Source of the DNA: Gammaproteobacteria bacterium
Lineage (GTDB): Bacteria; Pseudomonadota; Gammaproteobacteria; UBA1113
Assembly (NCBI GenBank): GCA_020051015.1
Contig: JAGVJQ010000032.1
Coordinates: 7,199-71,198, forward strand
Length of the DNA: 64,000 nt
Reading direction: 5' to 3'
The translations under genes and the position numbers were made by a program. Under the pieces are notes generated by a model. The model did no database searches. It saw nothing but the letters and a program-made list of their open reading frames with translations, and was not told the DNA's origin. Every line of letters starts with the position of its first letter. The first letter of the stretch is position 1. Positions 19,797-44,365 of this stretch are shown here, piece by piece.

Positions 19797-19819
19797 GGAG
19801 CTGTTGACAATTCTACTTT
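19797..19819. repeat. MITE terminal-inverted-repeat fragment (left-end type)
   Basis: agctgttgacaattctact matches the left terminus of the MITE copies (ggggctgttgacaattctact). It is preceded by cctagg, as at the MITE flanks. Confidence 0.7.
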
Positions 19820-21233
19820 AACGCAAAGGTCTCATTGAAAGTTTATTGGCTGGCCCATTAACATGTCCGATATCGGATGCTGGAAATACTTGCGCATTGA
19901 CTCTTGTTAATGGCAAATCGTAATTAACACTACCCAGGAATTTACGCGTTAAAGCAGTAGGATCGACTGCAACGTAAGATTGTGCTGATGCACTACTTTG
20001 TTGCGCGATGGCCTTTAGCCCACTTGATGCTTGTCGATGTACTTCACCAAGAGCATAAGCAGAATTTTTTAGTTTATTATACACTTCATCAGCATTTCCA
20101 AATTGTGGATTTTGTTCCGCAAAGGTTTTTGTTAAATCTCGGCTAACTAACAATCCATGCGGTGTAGTAATCAATAACTGTGTTAATGCGCCATTGCCAT
20201 TTTGTCGACCATATTTATGTCCATATTGCTTTAACCAATTAAGGAAAAACTCACCAAATTCAGTTGCGCCCAGCGAACCGCTGATTTCAGATGAGCTAAT
20301 CTCTTTACCCGGAATAAACATGCCACTATTAGTAAAATGAGATTGAGGTACAGTGGCTTCTTGATTAAATGTGGTATTTTCTTGATTACTGTCTGCGTCA
20401 TCAGCTTGTTTAGCATTTTTCTTATCTTCACTAGATTCACCAATTTCATATTGTTGAATTAAATCACCAATTAAAAATCCAGCTTCTAAATTGGGTTGTT
20501 GTTCTAAATCAGCTTCGATAGGTAAAATACATTTAGCAAATAAACCTGCATGTTTATCATCATTTAATAAAATGGCTAACCATGCGTTAAAAATTTCAGC
20601 ATCCGTTGCAATCCAGCTCACACCGACTGGCGGTAAAGTCTCTAATGCTAAAACCAAGGTACTGCGGGCTGCTAATTCATCACGACGTGTCGTTTCAAAA
20701 CTATAACGATAAAATTCGCCCTGATCTCGCATATATCCTTTTACAGGATTCCATCGTTGTGTTGGATGACCATTCATTTCACACATCATCACCCAGTACG
20801 TAGCAACAACTTGACCAATACCATACATCAAGCCAGCAGTAAAAAGTGCGTAACTCCAAATGGCTTGCCGAATGGGCATTTGCTCAGGGGTCGCATGGCG
20901 GACAGGAAATTCACGGCGATACCAAGCTAAAGTTTGTAGCGCTCGCTTGATGCCAAGCTCTAATAAACCACCATGATAATTAAACGTGTCAACTTGGGTT
21001 GCAGGTAATCCTTGCACAAAATTGGCGTAATCATGAATAGCTTTCAAATATAAGTCATTGAAAACACTTTCTGGCACAAAAGCTAAATTTTTTAACTGCG
21101 ACAATGTTTGTTGGTAATTTTTGCCTTTAAGCAATTGTTCCGCTGATAATACTGGATAATGCGGTGGTAATTTCGACATGATAGGTGTTACTTTATCCCA
21201 AGCTGGAGATGAGGCTACTTTTGTTGTAAACAT
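19818..21233 (-). CDS. hypothetical protein with similarity to the N-terminal HD-like domain of MobH/TraI_2-type ICE relaxases, with catalytic residues substituted
   Basis: Segment LPATQVDTFNYHGGLLELGIKRALQTLAWYRR...ATPEQMPIRQAIWSYALFTAGLMYGIGQVV resembles the LPAS...HHxxxGGLLxHTLEV...LLHDIGK region of MobH relaxases, but the second His, the H-T and the HD are replaced. 471 aa, no transmembrane segment. Confidence 0.4.
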   Translation of the reverse strand: MFTTKVASSPAWDKVTPIMSKLPPHYPVLSAEQLLKGKNYQQTLSQLKNLAFVPESVFNDLYLKAIHDYANFVQGLPATQVDTFNYHGGLLELGIKRALQTLAWYRREFPVRHATPEQMPIRQAIWSYALFTAGLMYGIGQVVATYWVMMCEMNGHPTQRWNPVKGYMRDQGEFYRYSFETTRRDELAARSTLVLALETLPPVGVSWIATDAEIFNAWLAILLNDDKHAGLFAKCILPIEADLEQQPNLEAGFLIGDLIQQYEIGESSEDKKNAKQADDADSNQENTTFNQEATVPQSHFTNSGMFIPGKEISSSEISGSLGATEFGEFFLNWLKQYGHKYGRQNGNGALTQLLITTPHGLLVSRDLTKTFAEQNPQFGNADEVYNKLKNSAYALGEVHRQASSGLKAIAQQSSASAQSYVAVDPTALTRKFLGSVNYDLPLTRVNAQVFPASDIGHVNGPANKLSMRPLR

Positions 21234-21282
21234 AATAATCCTTTTCGTTTACATAGGCACGTCATCAGACGTGCCGTATAAT

Positions 21283-22059
21283 TTAAACAAACTTATCAAA
21301 TTGTTGCAGTTTTAAATGATTAACAACTTTTTTAATCGATGATATATATCGATTACCCAATTCAGAATAAGCCATTAATCCATTGACCAATTCAATACTG
21401 TTGATATTTTTCTTTTGCGAACGTTCGTTATAACGAATATTTCGCATTTGTTTATATGCCTTATTGCTATTCAAGTTGTGAATATAGGTATTAATTGCAT
21501 CATCAATATCATCAAACTTAGCCATTTCATAATAATTACCGCGTCGATTATGGCCTGTACTGACACCACAACCACGTGAAAAACACTCTTGGCCAAAATA
21601 ATTATTCGCATGACGGGCAATATGAGAGTTACCCCATCCTGATTCTTGGATTGCTTGTGCCAATACCAGTGAAACAGGAACAATATCTACACGCTTATCT
21701 AATTCTTGCCATGTGCCTTTACTATTAAAGTTTGGCGATGCAATTTTATATTCACTCGCTAAATTCATTAACCAATGTTTATCACCGGCAGATAAATCTT
21801 TACCACTTTGATATTGCGTTTGCAATGAAAGTAATTGTTTTCGGTCACTCAATATTTGTTGATTTGTTTGATAAGTACTATCTACTACTGATTCAACAAA
21901 TTTGGCATGCTGTCCAGAAAAATTACTTTTCACTTGCTGACTAACTTGGGCGTGGTTCCCAAACCAATTAAATGCAAATGCATTTGTCGAAAGTACCAAC
22001 AACGGTACTAAAATTAAACTAGCGAAAACTGATTTTGTCCGCCTTGGTTGTTTTTGCAT
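21283..22059 (-). CDS. Bax-like protein with mannosyl-glycoprotein endo-beta-N-acetylglucosaminidase (FlgJ-type) domain
   Basis: Signal peptide or TM. Motif LVLAQAIQESGWGNSHIARHANNYFG is typical of the glucosaminidase domain. Confidence 0.7.
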   Translation of the reverse strand: MQKQPRRTKSVFASLILVPLLVLSTNAFAFNWFGNHAQVSQQVKSNFSGQHAKFVESVVDSTYQTNQQILSDRKQLLSLQTQYQSGKDLSAGDKHWLMNLASEYKIASPNFNSKGTWQELDKRVDIVPVSLVLAQAIQESGWGNSHIARHANNYFGQECFSRGCGVSTGHNRRGNYYEMAKFDDIDDAINTYIHNLNSNKAYKQMRNIRYNERSQKKNINSIELVNGLMAYSELGNRYISSIKKVVNHLKLQQFDKFV

Positions 22060-26534: not shown

Positions 26535-27782
26535 ATGAAAGAAAAACTATTACAAACGATTAATCAATTAATTCCACAAATAGATAAAGTACTTAAAAAG
26601 AAAAAAATTCGTACTGCAGATACGGCTGAAGCACTGGATTTTATAGCTTTATTAAATAAAATCAGCATTATTAAAAAAGAAAAAATCCTTCGCAGTGATG
26701 ATGCCTTTTTAATCTTTTTATCCCTTGCGGAAATTTTATTCATTAGCTTAAATTATCTAATAAAACATGAATTAATAGATGAAACAATTAAAAGAACTCT
26801 CTACGAGATTTACGCTAAACTAAACTGGTGTTCAAACCAAATATTCGGACAAAAAGATACTGGTTTTTATTTTACTACGTCGACAAATTTTACTAATGAT
26901 GCAATAACTAACGAAACAGTCATTCCTACAATAAAAAATATGGCTTATCTCAACCTAACACATAACTATCTATTAGAAACACAGCAGTTATATACAGAAA
27001 AAAATAGGACAAAAAAAATATCTGTAGCTGAAAAAATACTCTTCTACCGCTTTACATTCTTAATATTATCAACATATAACAATAATAATATAATTAGTGG
27101 TTACCGAATTATTAAGGATCATGTTAATGTATTACCCGATTCTTACGAAGTAAATTATCAAACTTGTATTGATTCCATTAAATCGTTATATGAAAAAAAT
27201 TTATTAGCCCTTAAAGAAACACCGTACCAAGGCTTTTTTGTTGCTGCATTGCACTCACTCACAACACAGCTTGATTCAATTTCTAACCTAGAACAATTTA
27301 TCTCACTCATTCCACGCTTTATATCACAAGCGCTAGCAATCATTGCAGCTAGTCCATATAAAATAAAATTTGAATTATGCAATTTGGTTGATCTATTTAT
27401 GCTAGATACAATAGGAATTATATTTAATCTCAGTGAACATCCAATACTAAAGACAGTAAAAGATAATGTTTCTTCACTATATAGCAATATTGCGAATGCT
27501 GGTATTCCAATTTTAGCATGGCAACGACATTGCACGAACATTAAACTAGCTTGGGAAAAATTAGTTATCACCATTAATCAGCCTAATGTTTCAAGTGATT
27601 TATTTTCATCTTCTCTTGCTGCAATGATACCGAAAACTATGCAACTACAATATGCACAGAATGAGCAATTACGGCGATCATCGTCACCTATTCATAACAA
27701 GTCGAACTATAAAGATGGAACCATAGAAATTCACATTAAAGAAGAGTTTGCTGTTCCCATGCTCTTGAGTCTAACCTGCTAA
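26535..27782 (+). CDS. hypothetical protein (415 aa), very AT-rich, no recognisable motif; candidate effector
   Basis: Long ORF in a conspicuously low-GC segment, rich in I/N/K/L. No signal peptide and no TM evident. Confidence 0.5.
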   Translation: MKEKLLQTINQLIPQIDKVLKKKKIRTADTAEALDFIALLNKISIIKKEKILRSDDAFLIFLSLAEILFISLNYLIKHELIDETIKRTLYEIYAKLNWCSNQIFGQKDTGFYFTTSTNFTNDAITNETVIPTIKNMAYLNLTHNYLLETQQLYTEKNRTKKISVAEKILFYRFTFLILSTYNNNNIISGYRIIKDHVNVLPDSYEVNYQTCIDSIKSLYEKNLLALKETPYQGFFVAALHSLTTQLDSISNLEQFISLIPRFISQALAIIAASPYKIKFELCNLVDLFMLDTIGIIFNLSEHPILKTVKDNVSSLYSNIANAGIPILAWQRHCTNIKLAWEKLVITINQPNVSSDLFSSSLAAMIPKTMQLQYAQNEQLRRSSSPIHNKSNYKDGTIEIHIKEEFAVPMLLSLTC

Positions 27783-31163: not shown

Positions 31164-31385
31164 ATGAAACTTGAAGTCAGAAAAATTGGTAACTCCGTTG
31201 GTGTAATCTTACCTAAGCAATTAACAGATAAATTACATGCGGTTGAAGGCGACTTACTCAATGTAATTGAATCACCCGAAGGCGTGATCTTAACTCCTTA
31301 TGATCCAGATTTTGATAATGCTATGAAAGCATACGCTAAATTTTCGAAAAAATATAAGAACGCACTACGAGAATTAGCTAAATGA
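31164..31385 (+). CDS. AbrB/MazE/SpoVT-family antitoxin
   Basis: 73 aa; swapped-hairpin motif LEVRKIGNSVGVILPKQL. Its stop overlaps the doc start (ATGA). Confidence 0.7.
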   Translation: MKLEVRKIGNSVGVILPKQLTDKLHAVEGDLLNVIESPEGVILTPYDPDFDNAMKAYAKFSKKYKNALRELAK

Positions 31386-31771
31386 AAAAGCCTATTTGGC
31401 TAACTACAACTCATGTGTTGGCATTTCATACTGATCAAATTCGTGAACATGGTGGCTTACATGGTATTCGAGATCATGGCCTATTTGAATCTGCAATAGC
31501 AAAACCTCAACAAGTTTATCATTACAATGATAAAGCGACATTATTTGATCTTGCTGCTGCATATGCTTATGGCATTATAAAAAATCACCCATTTCTTGAT
31601 GGTAATAAACGTACCGGTATTATTTGTGCTGGCGTTTTCCTTTCGCTTAATGGTTATTTTTTAAATGTTGAAGAAACTGAAATGGTCATGACTGTATTAG
31701 CATTAGCGAGCAGCCAAATGACTGAGTCTGAATTTGCCCATTGGTTGAAAAAAAATTCAACTGCAGAATAA
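31382..31771 (+). CDS. doc: Doc (death-on-curing) / Fic-family toxin
   Basis: Fic/Doc motif [11 protein letters not shown]; 129 aa. Confidence 0.85.
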
Positions 31772-39152: not shown

Positions 39153-39602
39153 ATGGTTGACCTTAGTCATGAAGGCGCACATAGGTTTTGGCGAGAATAT
39201 CCCGATCCAATGATTTATCGTGTGGTTGCTTTTATGGAAGGTGTGGAACAATGGACTTTAGACGGCGATCCAGCCTTTGAAGCCGCAGTTGCCAAATTGG
39301 GCGAAGAATTAGATAAAGTAGGCAATTATGAACTTGGAATGAAAGATGAGTTTATTAAATTTGCCACGTATATTAAAGCAGCGCGTAATTTACGCCTTTT
39401 ACAAGCATTAGACACCGCTCATCCTGGTGCCGCATCCAAATTACTTATTCATGCTGAAGAATCCAGCAAAAGCAGTGATGATATTCCTGGCCTTTTTTTA
39501 AGGCGTAATATAGTCTTTGAAAGATTACGTTTATTAGGCCGCATTTTTTCTATAGAACGTTTAGATTTAATTGTAAAAGCGCTTGGAGGTGAAGATGTTT
39601 AA
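39153..39602 (+). CDS. icmW: Dot/Icm type IV adaptor protein IcmW
   Basis: 149 aa. DLSHEGAHRFWREYPDPMIYRVVAFMEGVEQWTLDGDP and RLLQALDTAHPGAASKLLIHAEE match the IcmW family. Confidence 0.8.
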   Translation: MVDLSHEGAHRFWREYPDPMIYRVVAFMEGVEQWTLDGDPAFEAAVAKLGEELDKVGNYELGMKDEFIKFATYIKAARNLRLLQALDTAHPGAASKLLIHAEESSKSSDDIPGLFLRRNIVFERLRLLGRIFSIERLDLIVKALGGEDV

Positions 39603-40068
39603 AGTAGCTAAATTATCCTCGTTATTCGTTGTTACTGGGCTGATTAGTATGAGTTCAGCTTGGGCAGCAGACGCGAATGACACCCTTTACCAACAAGTTG
39701 GTAATCAAGATATCAGTGTTTTAAATAGTATGAATGTCCAAGCATCGCAAAACCAAGCCCAACAAATGGGTACGCAAATGCAACAAGATATTAATCAGCA
39801 ACGTGCTCAAAATCAACAATATTTACAACAAGTTGGACAACAAATCATTCAAGCTGGAACACGTAATGGCGCCACTCAAACCACTATAACACCACCAGCG
39901 CCAACCAATACTCCCACGACGAATACACCGACCACAGGGCCATCAAACAATGCCAGCCCTGCCACTTCTACTAATAAATCCACATCTACAAACCCACCAG
40001 CTCCCACTACGCCAAATGGTTTAAGTAATGGTGCTAATGGTGGCAGCGGTTGGAGTTATGGTTTTTAA
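39583..40068 (+). CDS. secreted Q/N- and T/P-rich protein (161 aa)
   Basis: Signal peptide (LSSLFVVTGLISMSSAWAAD), a poly-Q/N central part, a TNTPTTNTPTTGPS repeat, and a G-rich C-terminus. It overlaps icmW by 20 nt and is in the same frame as the next ORF but separated from it by TAA. Confidence 0.5.
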   Translation: MEVKMFKVAKLSSLFVVTGLISMSSAWAADANDTLYQQVGNQDISVLNSMNVQASQNQAQQMGTQMQQDINQQRAQNQQYLQQVGQQIIQAGTRNGATQTTITPPAPTNTPTTNTPTTGPSNNASPATSTNKSTSTNPPAPTTPNGLSNGANGGSGWSYGF

Positions 40069-40104: not shown

Positions 40105-41103
40105 GTGAAACATAAAGCACAAAAATTGGTAGCGTTAACTACTGTAACAACAGCGATGACGGTAGGATTATTAGGTAGCAGTACAGCGCTAGCTGATGAT
40201 AGCTCTGACAGCGTTCATCAAATTACAAGTGGTGTTGCTAGTGCATTTGGCTTTGGCACTATCAATGTCTTAAGTGGCTTATATACTTATTTACAAGATT
40301 GTGAAAATGCTTATTCAGTTTGGGTACTTAAAACCATGCAAGGTAATGCTACTCAATACGCCATTACTGACTCACAAAAATTACAGGCACAAACCGCAAA
40401 AGATACTACGGCCTTTATCTTTAACGCGGTCACCGCACCTAATGCTCAGCCACAAGCAACAACGTCTACGGGCTTACCAACTAATTATTCTGCTGGTGTT
40501 TATGCAGCTATGGTACCGGTTAACAGAGACACGATGGGATTAGCTAAATCTACTTACTTATCAAGTGAAGCGCTTTTTGCCTCAACCAAATACAATGGTG
40601 ATACACAGCGTCAACAAGCTGGCACATTTATTCAATTTTTAGGTGATGCGGGAGCCAGAGTAACGCCGCTAAATGCGCAAACGTTACAAAAAGCAGATGG
40701 TGCAACAGCCGCATCTTATTTAAACTCACTAGCAACTTATTATGCCGGTCAATCAGTGGGCTTAAATGCACTTTACAATTTGTATAATGAACGTATCCCA
40801 GTTCAACAATTAAATGGTGAAAGTGTCTTATCAAATGATCAAAAGCAAGTTCTGCGCCGCATGCAACCTGCTTGGACCGAAAGTGTCAGTAAAATGACAA
40901 TTGTTGATGTTGCACGTGAAACGCTTTATACACAAGCCGAAATGAATTATCAACTCTTTCAGCTACGCATGCAGTTAGAGCAATTAAATGCTACATTGGC
41001 AGCTATGCAAATGGAGCAACAACAGATTTCTGCTAAACCATTATTGATGGGTAAAGAACAACAAGTTATCCAATCAGCTAATGCGGCAAGTGCTCCTAGT
41101 TAA
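40105..41103 (+). CDS. icmX: periplasmic protein, probable IcmX homologue
   Basis: GTG start with GGAGG RBS. Signal peptide MKHKAQKLVALTTVTTAMTVGLLGSSTALA. 332 aa with a C-terminal coiled coil. Sits in the icmX position after icmW. Confidence 0.45.
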   Translation: MKHKAQKLVALTTVTTAMTVGLLGSSTALADDSSDSVHQITSGVASAFGFGTINVLSGLYTYLQDCENAYSVWVLKTMQGNATQYAITDSQKLQAQTAKDTTAFIFNAVTAPNAQPQATTSTGLPTNYSAGVYAAMVPVNRDTMGLAKSTYLSSEALFASTKYNGDTQRQQAGTFIQFLGDAGARVTPLNAQTLQKADGATAASYLNSLATYYAGQSVGLNALYNLYNERIPVQQLNGESVLSNDQKQVLRRMQPAWTESVSKMTIVDVARETLYTQAEMNYQLFQLRMQLEQLNATLAAMQMEQQQISAKPLLMGKEQQVIQSANAASAPS

Positions 41104-41108
41104 TGATA

Positions 41109-41190
41109 ATATACCTATCACACATCAAGGTGCGATGTTTGCTTCTAAGAGAATGGTAAACTCGCATTTTGAGGTGTGATAGATATATAC
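41109..41190. terminator. long imperfect inverted repeat between convergent icmX-like and the regulator gene
   Basis: Left arm atatacctatcacacatcaaggtgcg; right arm cgcattttgaggtgtgatagatatat. Confidence 0.5.
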
Positions 41191-41260
41191 TCGCCTTGAT
41201 AAATTCCAAGGCAAATATCGCTTTAACCGGTAAGGTTTTTTGAAATTTATCGGTGCGTAT

Positions 41261-42877
41261 CTATGTCGAATAATCGCTAAATATACAATTCCCACCGACC
41301 ATTTTTGCTTTTAACAACGCTTCACTCGCAGTATGAATAAAACTTTCAACTGATAAACAAGGTGGAAATGATGCTATTCCAGCACTAAAAGTCGCTAAAA
41401 ATGATTCCCCTAAATTATTAAATACAACTTGACTAAAATACTCTTTAAATTCATTAATAAGAGTTAAAGCGGATTGTACCGTTGTATTAGGTAAGACCAT
41501 TAAAAAGCTACCACTACTATAACGACCAATTAAATCCGATTTTCGCAATCGTTCACATAGCATCAAAGATAAGCTCTTAATCACCCGATCGCCAACGATA
41601 TAACCATAATCATCATTAATTTTCTGACAATTATCTATATCTATTATTGCAACAGTCAATGTTTGATGAGCACGATTTGCTAATTTTAATTCTGACTCGA
41701 GTTCTTGAATAATTGAATTATGATTAAGAACACCTGTTAAATGATCTTTCATAATTAAAGTCTGCAATGCATGATAACGTTTGATTCTATTTTTAATTGT
41801 TGAAATTAAAATACCAGGATCCATTGATTTTTTGATAACATCATCAGCACCCATGCTCATAGCATATAATTGTTTTTCAGGGTTTTCTTCCATCGATAAG
41901 AAAATTATTGGAATGTGTACATAAGCATCACGTTGACGAATTATTTTAACTAATTCTAGCCCACTACAAATTGGCATATAAATATCAGTTAAAATCAAAT
42001 CCGGGTGAAATTCATGTAACGCTTTATCGATAAAGACTGGTTGATTAATCACCATTGTTGCGATACCAGCATACTGTAAAATCGTTTCATAAACTTGTGC
42101 TACATCAGGTTCATCCTCAATGAGTAATACTTTATAAGGATCTTTATCTTCATTATGTAATAAAGCTAATTTAGTTATGATTTCTTCTTCTTTAAATGGA
42201 TATGGGAAATAACCATCACCGCCAGCGCGAACAGCCTGCAGGTGTAATAAAAAGTTATCACTTTCACCCAGAAAAAATATTGGAATTGCTAACGTTAATT
42301 TTGGACTTTTAATCTTTTTAAGAATTTCTTCTAATTCTTCATTGAGACATTTAATATCAACAATAATTAATTCCGGTAAACTTTCATCCAATATTTTTTT
42401 GAAGGATTCGACATCGTGCAATATTTTAGTAATATAGCCAAATTGTTCAAAATGTAATTTTTGTAAGGAATCTTTATCGTCGGTAGGAGCAAGGTAATAA
42501 ATCATATGATTTTGGATTAACAACTCATTCTTATTCTGTGTATAAAGCGTTTTATTTTTAATGTCTGCTGCATCCAATAGCATTTGACAAAATTGAGATA
42601 ATCGCGCAATTTGATCTTCGCTTGGATTAACCTTCAATAAGTTTTTCAAAAAAAACTCGAAAGTTTCAGCTGACTTTTCTAATTTCGTAAAGCCATACAT
42701 TGCTGCGGAACCATGTAAAGCATGCACTTTACAATGTAGGTCAACAAGTACATTGTTATCCCACTTTGCATTGAGTTGCTCGCAAATGGTTACAATTTCA
42801 TTGATTTTATGCGGTATACTTTTTTTATATTTATCAATAAGTAATGAGATTTTTTCATGAAAATCCATCTTTTCCAA
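41261..42877 (-). CDS. HPt - pseudo-receiver - receiver - degenerate GGDEF multidomain response regulator
   Basis: N-terminal HPt (HALHGSAAMYGF). A second receiver has canonical Asp (DLILTDIYMP), T/S and K. The C-terminal GGDEF fold has an SGSF motif in place of GG(D/E)EF (RYSSGSFLMVLP). Confidence 0.75.
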   Translation of the reverse strand: MEKMDFHEKISLLIDKYKKSIPHKINEIVTICEQLNAKWDNNVLVDLHCKVHALHGSAAMYGFTKLEKSAETFEFFLKNLLKVNPSEDQIARLSQFCQMLLDAADIKNKTLYTQNKNELLIQNHMIYYLAPTDDKDSLQKLHFEQFGYITKILHDVESFKKILDESLPELIIVDIKCLNEELEEILKKIKSPKLTLAIPIFFLGESDNFLLHLQAVRAGGDGYFPYPFKEEEIITKLALLHNEDKDPYKVLLIEDEPDVAQVYETILQYAGIATMVINQPVFIDKALHEFHPDLILTDIYMPICSGLELVKIIRQRDAYVHIPIIFLSMEENPEKQLYAMSMGADDVIKKSMDPGILISTIKNRIKRYHALQTLIMKDHLTGVLNHNSIIQELESELKLANRAHQTLTVAIIDIDNCQKINDDYGYIVGDRVIKSLSLMLCERLRKSDLIGRYSSGSFLMVLPNTTVQSALTLINEFKEYFSQVVFNNLGESFLATFSAGIASFPPCLSVESFIHTASEALLKAKMVGGNCIFSDYST

Positions 42878-42919
42878 GATATTATCCTCAAAAACTACCC
42901 CTCATATAAGTAGTTTAGC

Positions 42920-44365
42920 TTATCCTGCGAACGCAGCCAGGCAAACTTGAAATAATCCTGTTGGAATAATACCTAAAGCTAGTACCATTAAGCAGTTAAC
43001 GCTAATGCCCAATTGCTTACCAAAACCATCAATAACAACCATAGTATGGTCTTCTGGCGCATCAAAATACATAACTTTTACCACACGTAGATAATAATAT
43101 GCGCCGATGATAGCAAAAATTAAAGCTAAAGCAGCTAACCAAACTAAATGTACGTGAACTAATGACACTAATACTGAAATTTTAGCGAAAAATCCTGCAC
43201 TTGGCGGAATACCGGCCATAGAAAACATCACTAATAGCATTAAGAATGCTAACCAGGGATTACGTGCATTTAAACCGCGCAAGTCATCAATGGATTGGAC
43301 CTCAAAGCCAGTACGACTTAACAACATTAAGACACCAAAAGCGCCTAAAGACATAATGGCATAAACAAGGGTATAAAACATGGCAGCACCAAAGCCAGAT
43401 GCAATGCCAGAAACTAAACCTAATAACATATAACCAATATGAGCGATTGAAGAATAAGCAAGCATACGACGAATATTAGATTGCACAATCGCAACAATAT
43501 TACCTATCGCCATCGATAAAATAGAAATTACCATCAAGATATGCTGCCATTGACTCGTTAATGCCGGCAAGGCATCGACTAATAAACGAATAGCTAAAGC
43601 AAATGCCGCAATTTTAGTTGCACTTGCAATAATTAACGTTACAGGTAACGGTGAACCTTCATAAATATCCGGAATCCACATATGGAAAGGTACCGCACCT
43701 AGTTTAAACGCCGCTGCCGCAATGACAAAAACTAACCCTAATACTAATACTGTTAATTGAGTATTATTGGAAGCAGCAATTGCTTGCATGACATCAGGAA
43801 TAGTTAAACTACCCGTTGCACCATATAACATGGACATACCAAATAACAAAAAGGCAGATGCTGTTGAGCCTAGCACAAAATATTTTAATGCGGCTTCAGC
43901 ACATTCTGCTGAATTTCGTTGCATAGCAATCATTGCATACAATGGCAATGATAATAATTCCAACCCAAGAAATAAGGTAATAAAACTATAAGCTGACACT
44001 AAGACCATCATTCCTAACACCACAAATAAGGTTAGCAAATAATATTGTCCTTCAGCTAAACCTTTTTGTCGGATAAAATTATGGGAATACAATAATGCCA
44101 AGAAAGTTGTAGCGTAAATAAAGACTTTTAACACACAGCCCATATGATCAATGATAAAACTATTATTAAAAACAATTTCGGTTTGATAATGAAATAAATT
44201 AACTGATAAAAAGGTACAAATTACCAATGTTAATTGGGTCAACATAAAAGTTAAATTACGTAACCGCTCACCCCAAAATAGATCGACTAGCAAAATGATT
44301 AAAATCATTGCTGTGATAAAAATTTCCGGCATGGCCGGGATAAGCTGTGTAACAGTAAAACTCAT
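42920..44365 (-). CDS. nuoN: NADH-quinone oxidoreductase subunit N
   Basis: 481 aa polytopic protein; last gene of the nuo operon. Confidence 0.9.
   Translation of the reverse strand: MSFTVTQLIPAMPEIFITAMILIILLVDLFWGERLRNLTFMLTQLTLVICTFLSVNLFHYQTEIVFNNSFIIDHMGCVLKVFIYATTFLALLYSHNFIRQKGLAEGQYYLLTLFVVLGMMVLVSAYSFITLFLGLELLSLPLYAMIAMQRNSAECAEAALKYFVLGSTASAFLLFGMSMLYGATGSLTIPDVMQAIAASNNTQLTVLVLGLVFVIAAAAFKLGAVPFHMWIPDIYEGSPLPVTLIIASATKIAAFALAIRLLVDALPALTSQWQHILMVISILSMAIGNIVAIVQSNIRRMLAYSSIAHIGYMLLGLVSGIASGFGAAMFYTLVYAIMSLGAFGVLMLLSRTGFEVQSIDDLRGLNARNPWLAFLMLLVMFSMAGIPPSAGFFAKISVLVSLVHVHLVWLAALALIFAIIGAYYYLRVVKVMYFDAPEDHTMVVIDGFGKQLGISVNCLMVLALGIIPTGLFQVCLAAFAG

Follow-up and report, generated by a model that had tools for sequence, protein, structure and literature searches.

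Introduction

The response regulator PopA of the alphaproteobacterium Caulobacter crescentus (CC1842) has the domain order receiver–receiver–GGDEF (REC–REC–GGDEF). It is described as a PleD paralogue and a GGDEF response regulator, and it serves as an effector of cyclic diguanylate (c-di-GMP) through a degenerate A-site and an intact RxxD motif (PMC12564702). In Anabaena, a relay running from a histidine kinase to a receiver, a histidine phosphotransfer (Hpt) domain and a REC–GGDEF protein has been shown for CdgK/CdgS (PMC9927289). GGDEF effectors with a degenerate A-site and an intact I-site, as well as phosphorelays feeding REC–GGDEF cyclases, are already known. Here, we analyze an open reading frame (ORF) from a gammaproteobacterium of the UBA1113 lineage, located at positions 41261..42877 on the minus strand of a 64,000-nucleotide stretch of contig JAGVJQ010000032.1 (assembly GCA_020051015.1; the window). 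In its product, one and the same chain unites an Hpt domain, a canonical receiver and an apparently dead cyclase, a combination of which we found no description in the literature searched.

The reading we favor, with moderate confidence, is that this product is a His-to-Asp phosphorelay protein whose output domain is a dead cyclase that probably binds c-di-GMP, with a PopA-like logic, and that the gene is not a module of the adjacent Dot/Icm type IVB secretion system (T4BSS).

Domain architecture and phosphorelay residues

The ORF encodes, in this order, an Hpt domain, a pseudo-receiver (REC1), a receiver (REC2), a stalk and a degenerate GGDEF domain. Translation from a TTG codon, with a GAGGA ribosome-binding site 7 nt on its 5′ side, gives a protein of 538 residues, the form used for residue numbering throughout; an ATG codon three codons downstream (at 42868) gives the 535-residue form found in public data (P0001, 100% identical). 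Pfam detected an Hpt domain (PF01627, residues 29–100) with 28.6 bits for a gathering cut-off of 24.6, Response_reg (PF00072) in two stretches with 93.9 bits, the best one spanning residues 250–361, and GGDEF (PF00990, residues 377–530) with 96.7 bits, the last two also being above their gathering cut-offs. We then examined an AlphaFold2 model built from a 63-sequence alignment, with a mean predicted local distance difference test score (pLDDT) of 88 and a predicted template modeling score (pTM) of 0.71. In agreement with Pfam, it displays (i) a predicted four-helix Hpt bundle (residues 6–103; 42569..42862), consisting of helices 6–37, 41–61, 64–82 and 87–103 with a pLDDT of about 90; (ii) after a disordered linker (residues 111–122), two complete (βα)5 receiver folds, namely REC1 (residues 125–241; 42155..42505), also recognized in alignments, and REC2 (residues 249–353; 41819..42133), also recognized by Pfam and in alignments; (iii) a stalk, i.e. 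a long linker helix leading from REC2 to the GGDEF domain as in DgcR and WspR (residues 354–376; 41750..41818); (iv) a GGDEF palm domain, catalytically degenerate (residues 377–534; 41276..41749), which both Pfam and Foldseek identify. All these features lie on the minus strand.

The top whole-chain match found by Foldseek is PleD (2v0n; 456 columns, E = 2e-28). DgcR (6zxb) matches the REC2–stalk–GGDEF part with a template modeling (TM) score of 0.71 over 294 columns, and the GGDEF domain taken by itself matches solved GGDEF domains with a TM score of about 0.9. By sequence, the best match in the PDB according to phmmer is DgcR again (6zxm; E = 1.3e-28, residues 246–533). The order Hpt, pseudo-REC, REC, GGDEF and the PleD-like body, both proposed in an original prediction made from the nucleotide sequence, are thus upheld by Pfam and the model for the former and by the PleD fold match for the latter.

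The predicted phospho-accepting histidine, identified in the family alignment, is His52 (42722..42724), within the motif HALHGS, a classical Hpt signature of the HxxKG type. The Hpt domain weakly matches HPt domains of the PDB, with His52 aligned to their histidine, and combines an above-threshold profile score with a conserved histidine carried by a four-helix bundle. This histidine is kept in 89% of the family members outside the clade of the protein and, among the closest homologues, in all five whose sequence spans the site, P0003 being truncated at its N-terminus. The phospho-acceptor pocket of REC2 is complete (E254, D255, D298 at 41984–41986, S328 and K350), and this domain passes the full receiver-residue test. 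REC1, which matches CpxR and other receivers at E = 3e-6, fails it: A130/P131 stand for the acidic pair, G204 for the Ser/Thr and Y226 for the Lys, though D174 is kept. Since REC1 is canonical (ED, D, S, K) in most family members, the pseudo-receiver state is derived. A degenerate first receiver followed by a canonical second one is what the original prediction had proposed, and both assignments stand. Note that residues 350–351 of REC2 (41825–41830) are Lys-Ser instead of the Lys-Pro of the family; the Lys is followed by Ser or Ala in the REC2 of all six closest homologues, and Lys-Pro is present in 100% of 57 non-clade sequences.

Genes surrounding two of the closest homologues point in the same direction. 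P0007, a degenerate homologue, is encoded in one operon after a PAS–HisKA–HATPase–REC hybrid kinase and a single-REC protein, and the gene of P0004 overlaps by 4 nt the single-REC gene that precedes it. With the Hpt histidine and the REC2 pocket conserved, these associations make the phosphorelay role that had been suggested for the protein plausible, and we predict it to be a cytoplasmic multistep-phosphorelay protein.

A degenerate A-site next to an intact I-site

In phmmer alignments with PleD and DgcR, the residues R-Y-S-S-G-S-F of the protein fall on R-Y-G-G-E-E-F, so that the A-site loop SSGSF (residues 454–458; 41504..41518, minus strand) replaces GG(D/E)EF. This loop had been recognized in the original prediction, and a check for an intact GG[DE]EF elsewhere in the 538 residues found none; the sole look-alike, GGDGY at residue 219, lies within REC1, where the family consensus is AVRAGGxAYF. 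We compared the GGDEF domain with those of 57 family members outside the immediate group. The protein differs at 11 of the 44 columns that are at least 85% conserved: the deviating residues are C417, Q418 and Y426 (PleD F331, K332 and H340), S454, S455, G456 and S457 (the GGEE positions), K478, S518, L522, and G529 (PleD R446). The positions of C417, Q418, Y426 and G529 are 98–100% F, K, H and R in the 57 members. Altogether, both catalytic glutamates and both glycines of the A-site are gone and the damage clusters in the catalytic half-site, so the protein keeps the GGDEF fold of active cyclases and lacks their GG(D/E)EF A-site with its acidic residues. Diguanylate cyclase activity is almost certainly lost, a claim already made from the loop and reinforced here by the replacement of the family F, K, H and R at positions 417, 418, 426 and 529.

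Five residues upstream of the loop, alignments reveal an intact RxxD I-site, RKSD (residues 445–448; 41534..41545, minus strand), equivalent to PleD R359–D362. This arrangement, an intact RxxD preceding a degenerate A-site, is the sequence signature of PopA/PelD-type proteins. R445 and D448 occur without exception in the six closest homologues, i.e. the protein and its two close relatives (the trio) plus P0004, P0005 and P0007, the A-site loops of which read SSGSF, SSECF, SNERF, GSEKF, NG-EF and NG-DF. As the motif is intact and invariant in these homologues, the ‘c-di-GMP-independent’ output suggested by the original prediction is premature. That prediction mentioned neither the RKSD motif, nor the additional active-site losses, nor the same-strand link with the nuo genes described below.

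Proposed mechanism

The following scheme would account for these features. A phosphoryl group would come from the receiver of a hybrid histidine kinase, the gene of which lies elsewhere in the genome, and would first reach His52. From there it would go on to Asp298 of REC2, either within one chain or between the subunits of a dimer, and possibly to further receivers. Phosphorylated REC2 would then act through the stalk helix to make the GGDEF domains pair differently, as in DgcR, WspR and PleD. Since no c-di-GMP synthesis is possible, the output would be non-enzymatic and the protein would probably behave as a phosphorylation-gated sensor or scaffold. Most likely, this output is the binding of c-di-GMP to RKSD, altering the oligomeric state, the localization or the partner binding of the protein, which would integrate its phosphorylation state and the c-di-GMP level.

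Several points weigh against this scheme. c-di-GMP binding is suggested by a four-residue motif and nothing else, and Arg390 of the secondary I-site of PleD aligns with Glu476 of the protein. Besides, in the neighboring subfamily, four of 15 other members with degenerate A-sites (P0262, P0266, P0268 and P0359) have also lost RxxD, so the motif is not obligatory for every dead-cyclase member. The intramolecular transfer from Hpt to REC2 is putative, and the Lys-Ser pair of REC2 may affect switching. Finally, the 64-kb window encodes no histidine kinase, single-REC protein or c-di-GMP enzyme. More specifically, Pfam scans of its ORFs of at least 100 residues not contained in a longer annotated ORF, other than the genes assigned to the interior of the nuo operon, detected no kinase, receiver, PilZ, EAL or HD-GYP domain besides those of the gene itself, and an Rfam scan of the window returned two tRNAs only and no c-di-GMP riboswitch.

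Recurrent A-site decay in an Hpt–REC–REC–GGDEF family

The family was assembled from word-indexed searches, complemented by HMMER scanning of all 1.84 billion cluster representatives. It is a large family of full-length Hpt–REC–REC–GGDEF proteins distributed over many phyla; among the matches listed, the Hpt-bearing members display 29–41% identity to the protein over 96–99% coverage, with E values down to 1e-109. Homology over the full length and the same domain order place the protein in this uncharacterized and unnamed family, as judged from the alignments, without its catalytic hallmark: about 90% of the family keep GG(D/E)EF and RxxD. Close relatives number only two, both from uncultured bacteria, P0002 (locus L004, 81% amino acid identity) and P0003 (locus L089, 73%), all other relatives being at most 41% identical. 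The canonical protein closest to it, P0264, shares 41% identity with it over 528 residues and displays RYGGDEF, GH, FK and GRN. Most Pseudomonas-type members reach 73–82% coverage, and the 538-residue ‘PleD family’ response regulators of Pseudomonas lack the Hpt histidine. By their length and architecture, the latter (P0113-type members) presumably belong to the GcbA (PA4843) group. GcbA is described as a cyclase made of two REC domains and a GGDEF domain (PMC9355167).

In a first neighbor-joining tree of 63 sequences, the six degenerate proteins formed a clade with 100% support, which would have indicated a single loss of the A-site in their ancestor. We withdrew this idea after denser sampling. 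When 148 more cluster representatives were added (60 bootstraps), the trio was recovered in 60/60 bootstraps and grouped with the canonical P0264 in 42/60, and the six degenerate proteins were monophyletic in 0/60. Dense sampling also yielded 14 further representatives with non-canonical A-sites, four of which lack RxxD as well; almost all of the 14 keep the Hpt histidine and the REC2 pocket. Decay of the active site is thus recurrent in this architecture, with the phosphorelay residues remaining constant. This suggests that the phosphorelay function is the selected core of the family.

The divergence between the gene and its two closest orthologues, in L004 and L089, was assessed from the proportions of nonsynonymous (pN) and synonymous (pS) differences only: pS ranges from 0.62 to 0.84, i.e. 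synonymous sites are saturated, which makes the ratio of nonsynonymous to synonymous rates (dN/dS) unreliable. REC2 has the lowest pN of all domains (0.06–0.08); the values are 0.09–0.17 for REC1 and 0.15–0.20 for the GGDEF domain. They indicate purifying selection on every domain, including the dead cyclase, and that the gene is no pseudogene. Searching species-representative genome contigs with the protein retrieved only an unrelated GGDEF match from Syntrophomonadaceae, and searching metagenome contigs with the clade alignment, by way of generic receiver patterns, retrieved only distant REC matches.

These data bear on the most serious competitor of the PopA-like reading, namely that the protein is a relay node or phosphate sink independent of c-di-GMP, in which Hpt and REC2 alone would count and the GGDEF fold would be kept as a scaffold for dimerization or protein binding, much like non-catalytic GGDEF proteins that work independently of the nucleotide. 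The Hpt histidine and the REC2 pocket are indeed what degenerate members keep most consistently, RxxD being lost in some of them, and constraint is strongest on REC2 and weakest on GGDEF. The missing equivalent of PleD R390 and the lack of c-di-GMP enzymes in the window are also in line with such a node, and regulation by inactive GGDEF proteins, in the absence of synthesis, has been discussed by Levi et al. (PMC3023162). However, the trio, P0004, P0005 and P0007 all share R445 and D448 while the A-site loop drifts, and purifying selection on the GGDEF domain remains clear. We therefore consider a pure relay node possible but clearly less probable than a phosphorelay protein with a c-di-GMP-binding output.

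The Dot/Icm adjacency is not conserved

The gene lies at the junction between a nuo operon and a dot/icm cluster. Upstream and on the same strand is nuoN (42920–44365); nuoM, nuoL and the remaining genes of the nuo operon precede it and reach back to about 57572. The 42-nt gap between nuoN and the gene (42878..42919, minus strand) contains the GAGGA ribosome-binding site and a weak A/U-rich hairpin, which is not significant (z = −1.0). A promoter and terminator scan gave nothing above shuffled expectation near the gene, and the 42-nt gap contains no consensus sigma-70-like promoter or terminator, so that transcription read-through from the nuo operon is possible; a similar gap is found in L004. 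Downstream, an icmX-like gene (40105–41103) is convergent to the gene across a 157-nt gap, as is icmW (39153–39602) further on; icmV, dotA and dotB follow on the minus strand. The convergence with the icm genes pointed out in the original prediction is thus real.

From this position, a role for the gene in regulating the Dot/Icm system, i.e. in controlling icm expression or activity, had been suggested. The same gene–icmX arrangement is found in L089, where the convergent 3′ end of icmX lies downstream of the gene encoding P0003, and the nuoM–nuoN–gene order is kept in L004, which encodes P0002; in addition, c-di-GMP affects the timing of Icm/Dot translocation in L. pneumophila (bioRxiv 10.1101/754762). 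To go beyond these two relatives, we turned to more distant dot/icm loci found via IcmW homologues with 71–92% identity, the nearest named IcmW relatives coming from metagenome-assembled genomes labeled ‘Legionellales bacterium’ and ‘Gammaproteobacteria bacterium’. In none of five such loci does a GGDEF gene lie within 10 kb of icmX, so that the adjacency is restricted to the window and L089. What follows icmX is an acyltransferase gene in L085, rsmA and surA in L086, further dot/icm genes in L091, AstE/AspA-family and major facilitator superfamily (MFS) genes in L092 and, in L087/L088 (GCA_964621215.1), a gloB-like hydroxyacylglutathione hydrolase gene and then a convergent nuoN. In the latter case, gloB thus fills the very icmX–nuoN junction from which the GGDEF gene is absent, and this junction appears to be a variable spot.

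Other observations also argue against a dedicated regulator. Being on the strand of nuoN, 42 nt away, and convergent with icmX, the gene is not co-transcribed with icmX; distant homologues are found in kinase operons away from dot/icm, with no dot/icm gene within 12 kb of P0007; and the protein has no DNA-binding domain. With five distant loci devoid of the gene and only two relatives sharing its location, the conserved co-location expected of a Dot/Icm-associated gene is missing; the Dot/Icm link is unsupported, and an absence of co-conservation across related genomes is essentially the outcome that the original prediction had itself named as refuting it. We regard dedicated control of Dot/Icm as unlikely. 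As far as these loci indicate, the nuoN–gene–icmX adjacency is retained synteny of one narrow lineage, a matter of local gene order and not a dedicated Dot/Icm module. For Dot/Icm biology, the finding is hence mainly negative, the gene being no conserved neighbor of the secretion genes. In terms of annotation, the public label ‘diguanylate cyclase (GGDEF)-like protein’ claims too much function, and the product should be annotated neither as a diguanylate cyclase nor as a T4BSS regulator.

The same position leaves room for a speculative idea, to which we give about as little credence: the protein might be a c-di-GMP-gated histidine phosphotransferase, in which the Hpt domain would be locked or set free by binding at the I-site, possibly with the help of the pseudo-receiver. 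Lying behind nuo and beside icmX in a lineage with an intracellular lifestyle, its gene might then make type IVB secretion respond to c-di-GMP and to the state of respiration or energy supply. A conceptual parallel is provided by the hybrid kinase ShkA, the domains of which are liberated by c-di-GMP (PMC6969517). If this were true, the second messenger would be an input switching a phosphorelay on or off by means of a device built from a decayed cyclase.

Remnants of the nucleotide pocket

Some guanine and metal contacts of the GGDEF domain are retained, namely D413, D415, N421 and D430 (the last two equivalent to PleD N335 and D344), together with the phosphate-binding K525 (PleD K442). They raise the possibility that the remnant of the substrate pocket senses a guanine nucleotide, GTP or (p)ppGpp (guanosine tetra- or pentaphosphate), and thereby gates the phosphorelay, in the manner of degenerate GGDEF domains with allosteric GTP binding; PDB entries 9g85 and 9g86 are indeed structures of PleD bound to ppGpp and pppGpp. 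Yet none of the four GGEE residues is left, nor are the equivalents of PleD F331, K332, H340 and R446; P0002, P0005 and P0007 have N or S in place of D413; and the residues retained may be structural, which makes a sensor of this kind improbable. As to a still active nucleotide cyclase with an unorthodox motif, the AGDEF of Vibrio cholerae VCA0965 does retain activity (PMC3974145), but known active variants keep the (D/E)EF acidic pair, whereas here the metal-binding and catalytic glutamates, both glycines and the R446 and K332 equivalents are lost, so that we give this last reading hardly any weight.

Other features of the window

The intergenic region between the gene and icmX (41104..41260) contains a 27-nt inverted repeat (41109–41135 and 41162–41188) that starts 6 nt past the icmX stop codon; its arms are 85% complementary and separated by a 26-nt loop. 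The folding energy of this region is −53.3 kcal/mol (z = −7.3), and the window contains a single copy of it. The 41109–41188 repeat is probably a terminator-like element devoid of a T-run, and the intergenic region as a whole probably a terminator region. In L089 (GCA_046313575.1, positions 1383–1820), the gene–icmX gap is about 440 nt long and harbors a different long inverted repeat, CTTGCTAAGAGTTGGTGTAGCCCGGTGTGA followed further on by its reverse complement, which looks like an insertion of the miniature inverted-repeat transposable element (MITE) type.

On the other side of icmX, a small low-complexity ORF (39583–40068, plus strand; 161 residues) with no Pfam match separates icmW and icmX. 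All five related dot/icm loci have an ORF of 155–171 residues at this place, which makes it likely that the ORF is a genuine gene, conserved and associated with the T4BSS. A Fic/DOC-family ORF (31382–31771, plus strand; 129 residues) lies directly 5′ of valS and overlaps its predicted start; no gene is called at this position upstream of valS in L085. Three ORFs, 486–2195 (minus strand), 5163–6542 (plus strand) and 26535–27782 (plus strand), encode proteins of 569, 459 and 415 residues, respectively, none of which matches a Pfam family; given the Dot/Icm system of the genome, they could be secreted effectors. Lastly, a TraI_2 helicase-like ORF of 471 residues in the region 19818–22059 (minus strand) adjoins a glucosaminidase-domain ORF, and this region may be the remnant of a conjugative or mobile element.

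Comparison with known systems

Among characterized proteins, PopA offers the closest parallel in logic: it likewise combines receivers with a GGDEF domain that has a degenerate A-site and an intact RxxD, and it binds c-di-GMP instead of making it (PMC12564702). PopA differs from the UBA1113 protein in lacking an Hpt domain, in being alphaproteobacterial and in working with RcdA, ClpXP and CtrA. Note also that degeneration affects the N-terminal receiver of the UBA1113 protein and that its GGDEF-proximal receiver is canonical. The protein falls outside the PopA orthologous group and, its nearest relatives being Hpt-bearing proteins from diverse phyla, it is no PopA orthologue.

PleD of C. crescentus resembles the protein by its phospho-receiver, its adaptor receiver and its GGDEF domain with an RxxD I-site. 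However, PleD is an active cyclase (GGEEF) without an Hpt domain, and phosphorylation takes place on its first receiver, with the second one as the adaptor, opposite to the arrangement proposed here. DgcR from Leptospira and WspR from Pseudomonas share the REC–stalk–GGDEF arrangement, which suggests that the same phosphorylation-dependent coiled-coil or dimer switch may operate in the UBA1113 protein, but neither has an Hpt domain or a second receiver, and both are active cyclases. The NCBIfam equivalog models concur: the protein scores 142 bits with that of PleD (NF007135; cut-off, 474 bits) and 131 bits with that of DgcR (cut-off, 500 bits). Scores so far below the cut-offs, together with the Hpt-bearing nearest relatives, indicate that it is not an orthologue of PopA, PleD or DgcR.

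The Hpt–REC–REC–GGDEF family, a name for which we found no use in the literature searched, is where the protein finds homology over its full length with the same domain order, the difference being that about 90% of the members keep GG(D/E)EF and its own motif is degenerate. The dead-cyclase members that recur in this family would constitute a good natural series for asking what role a GGDEF domain plays once catalysis is gone.

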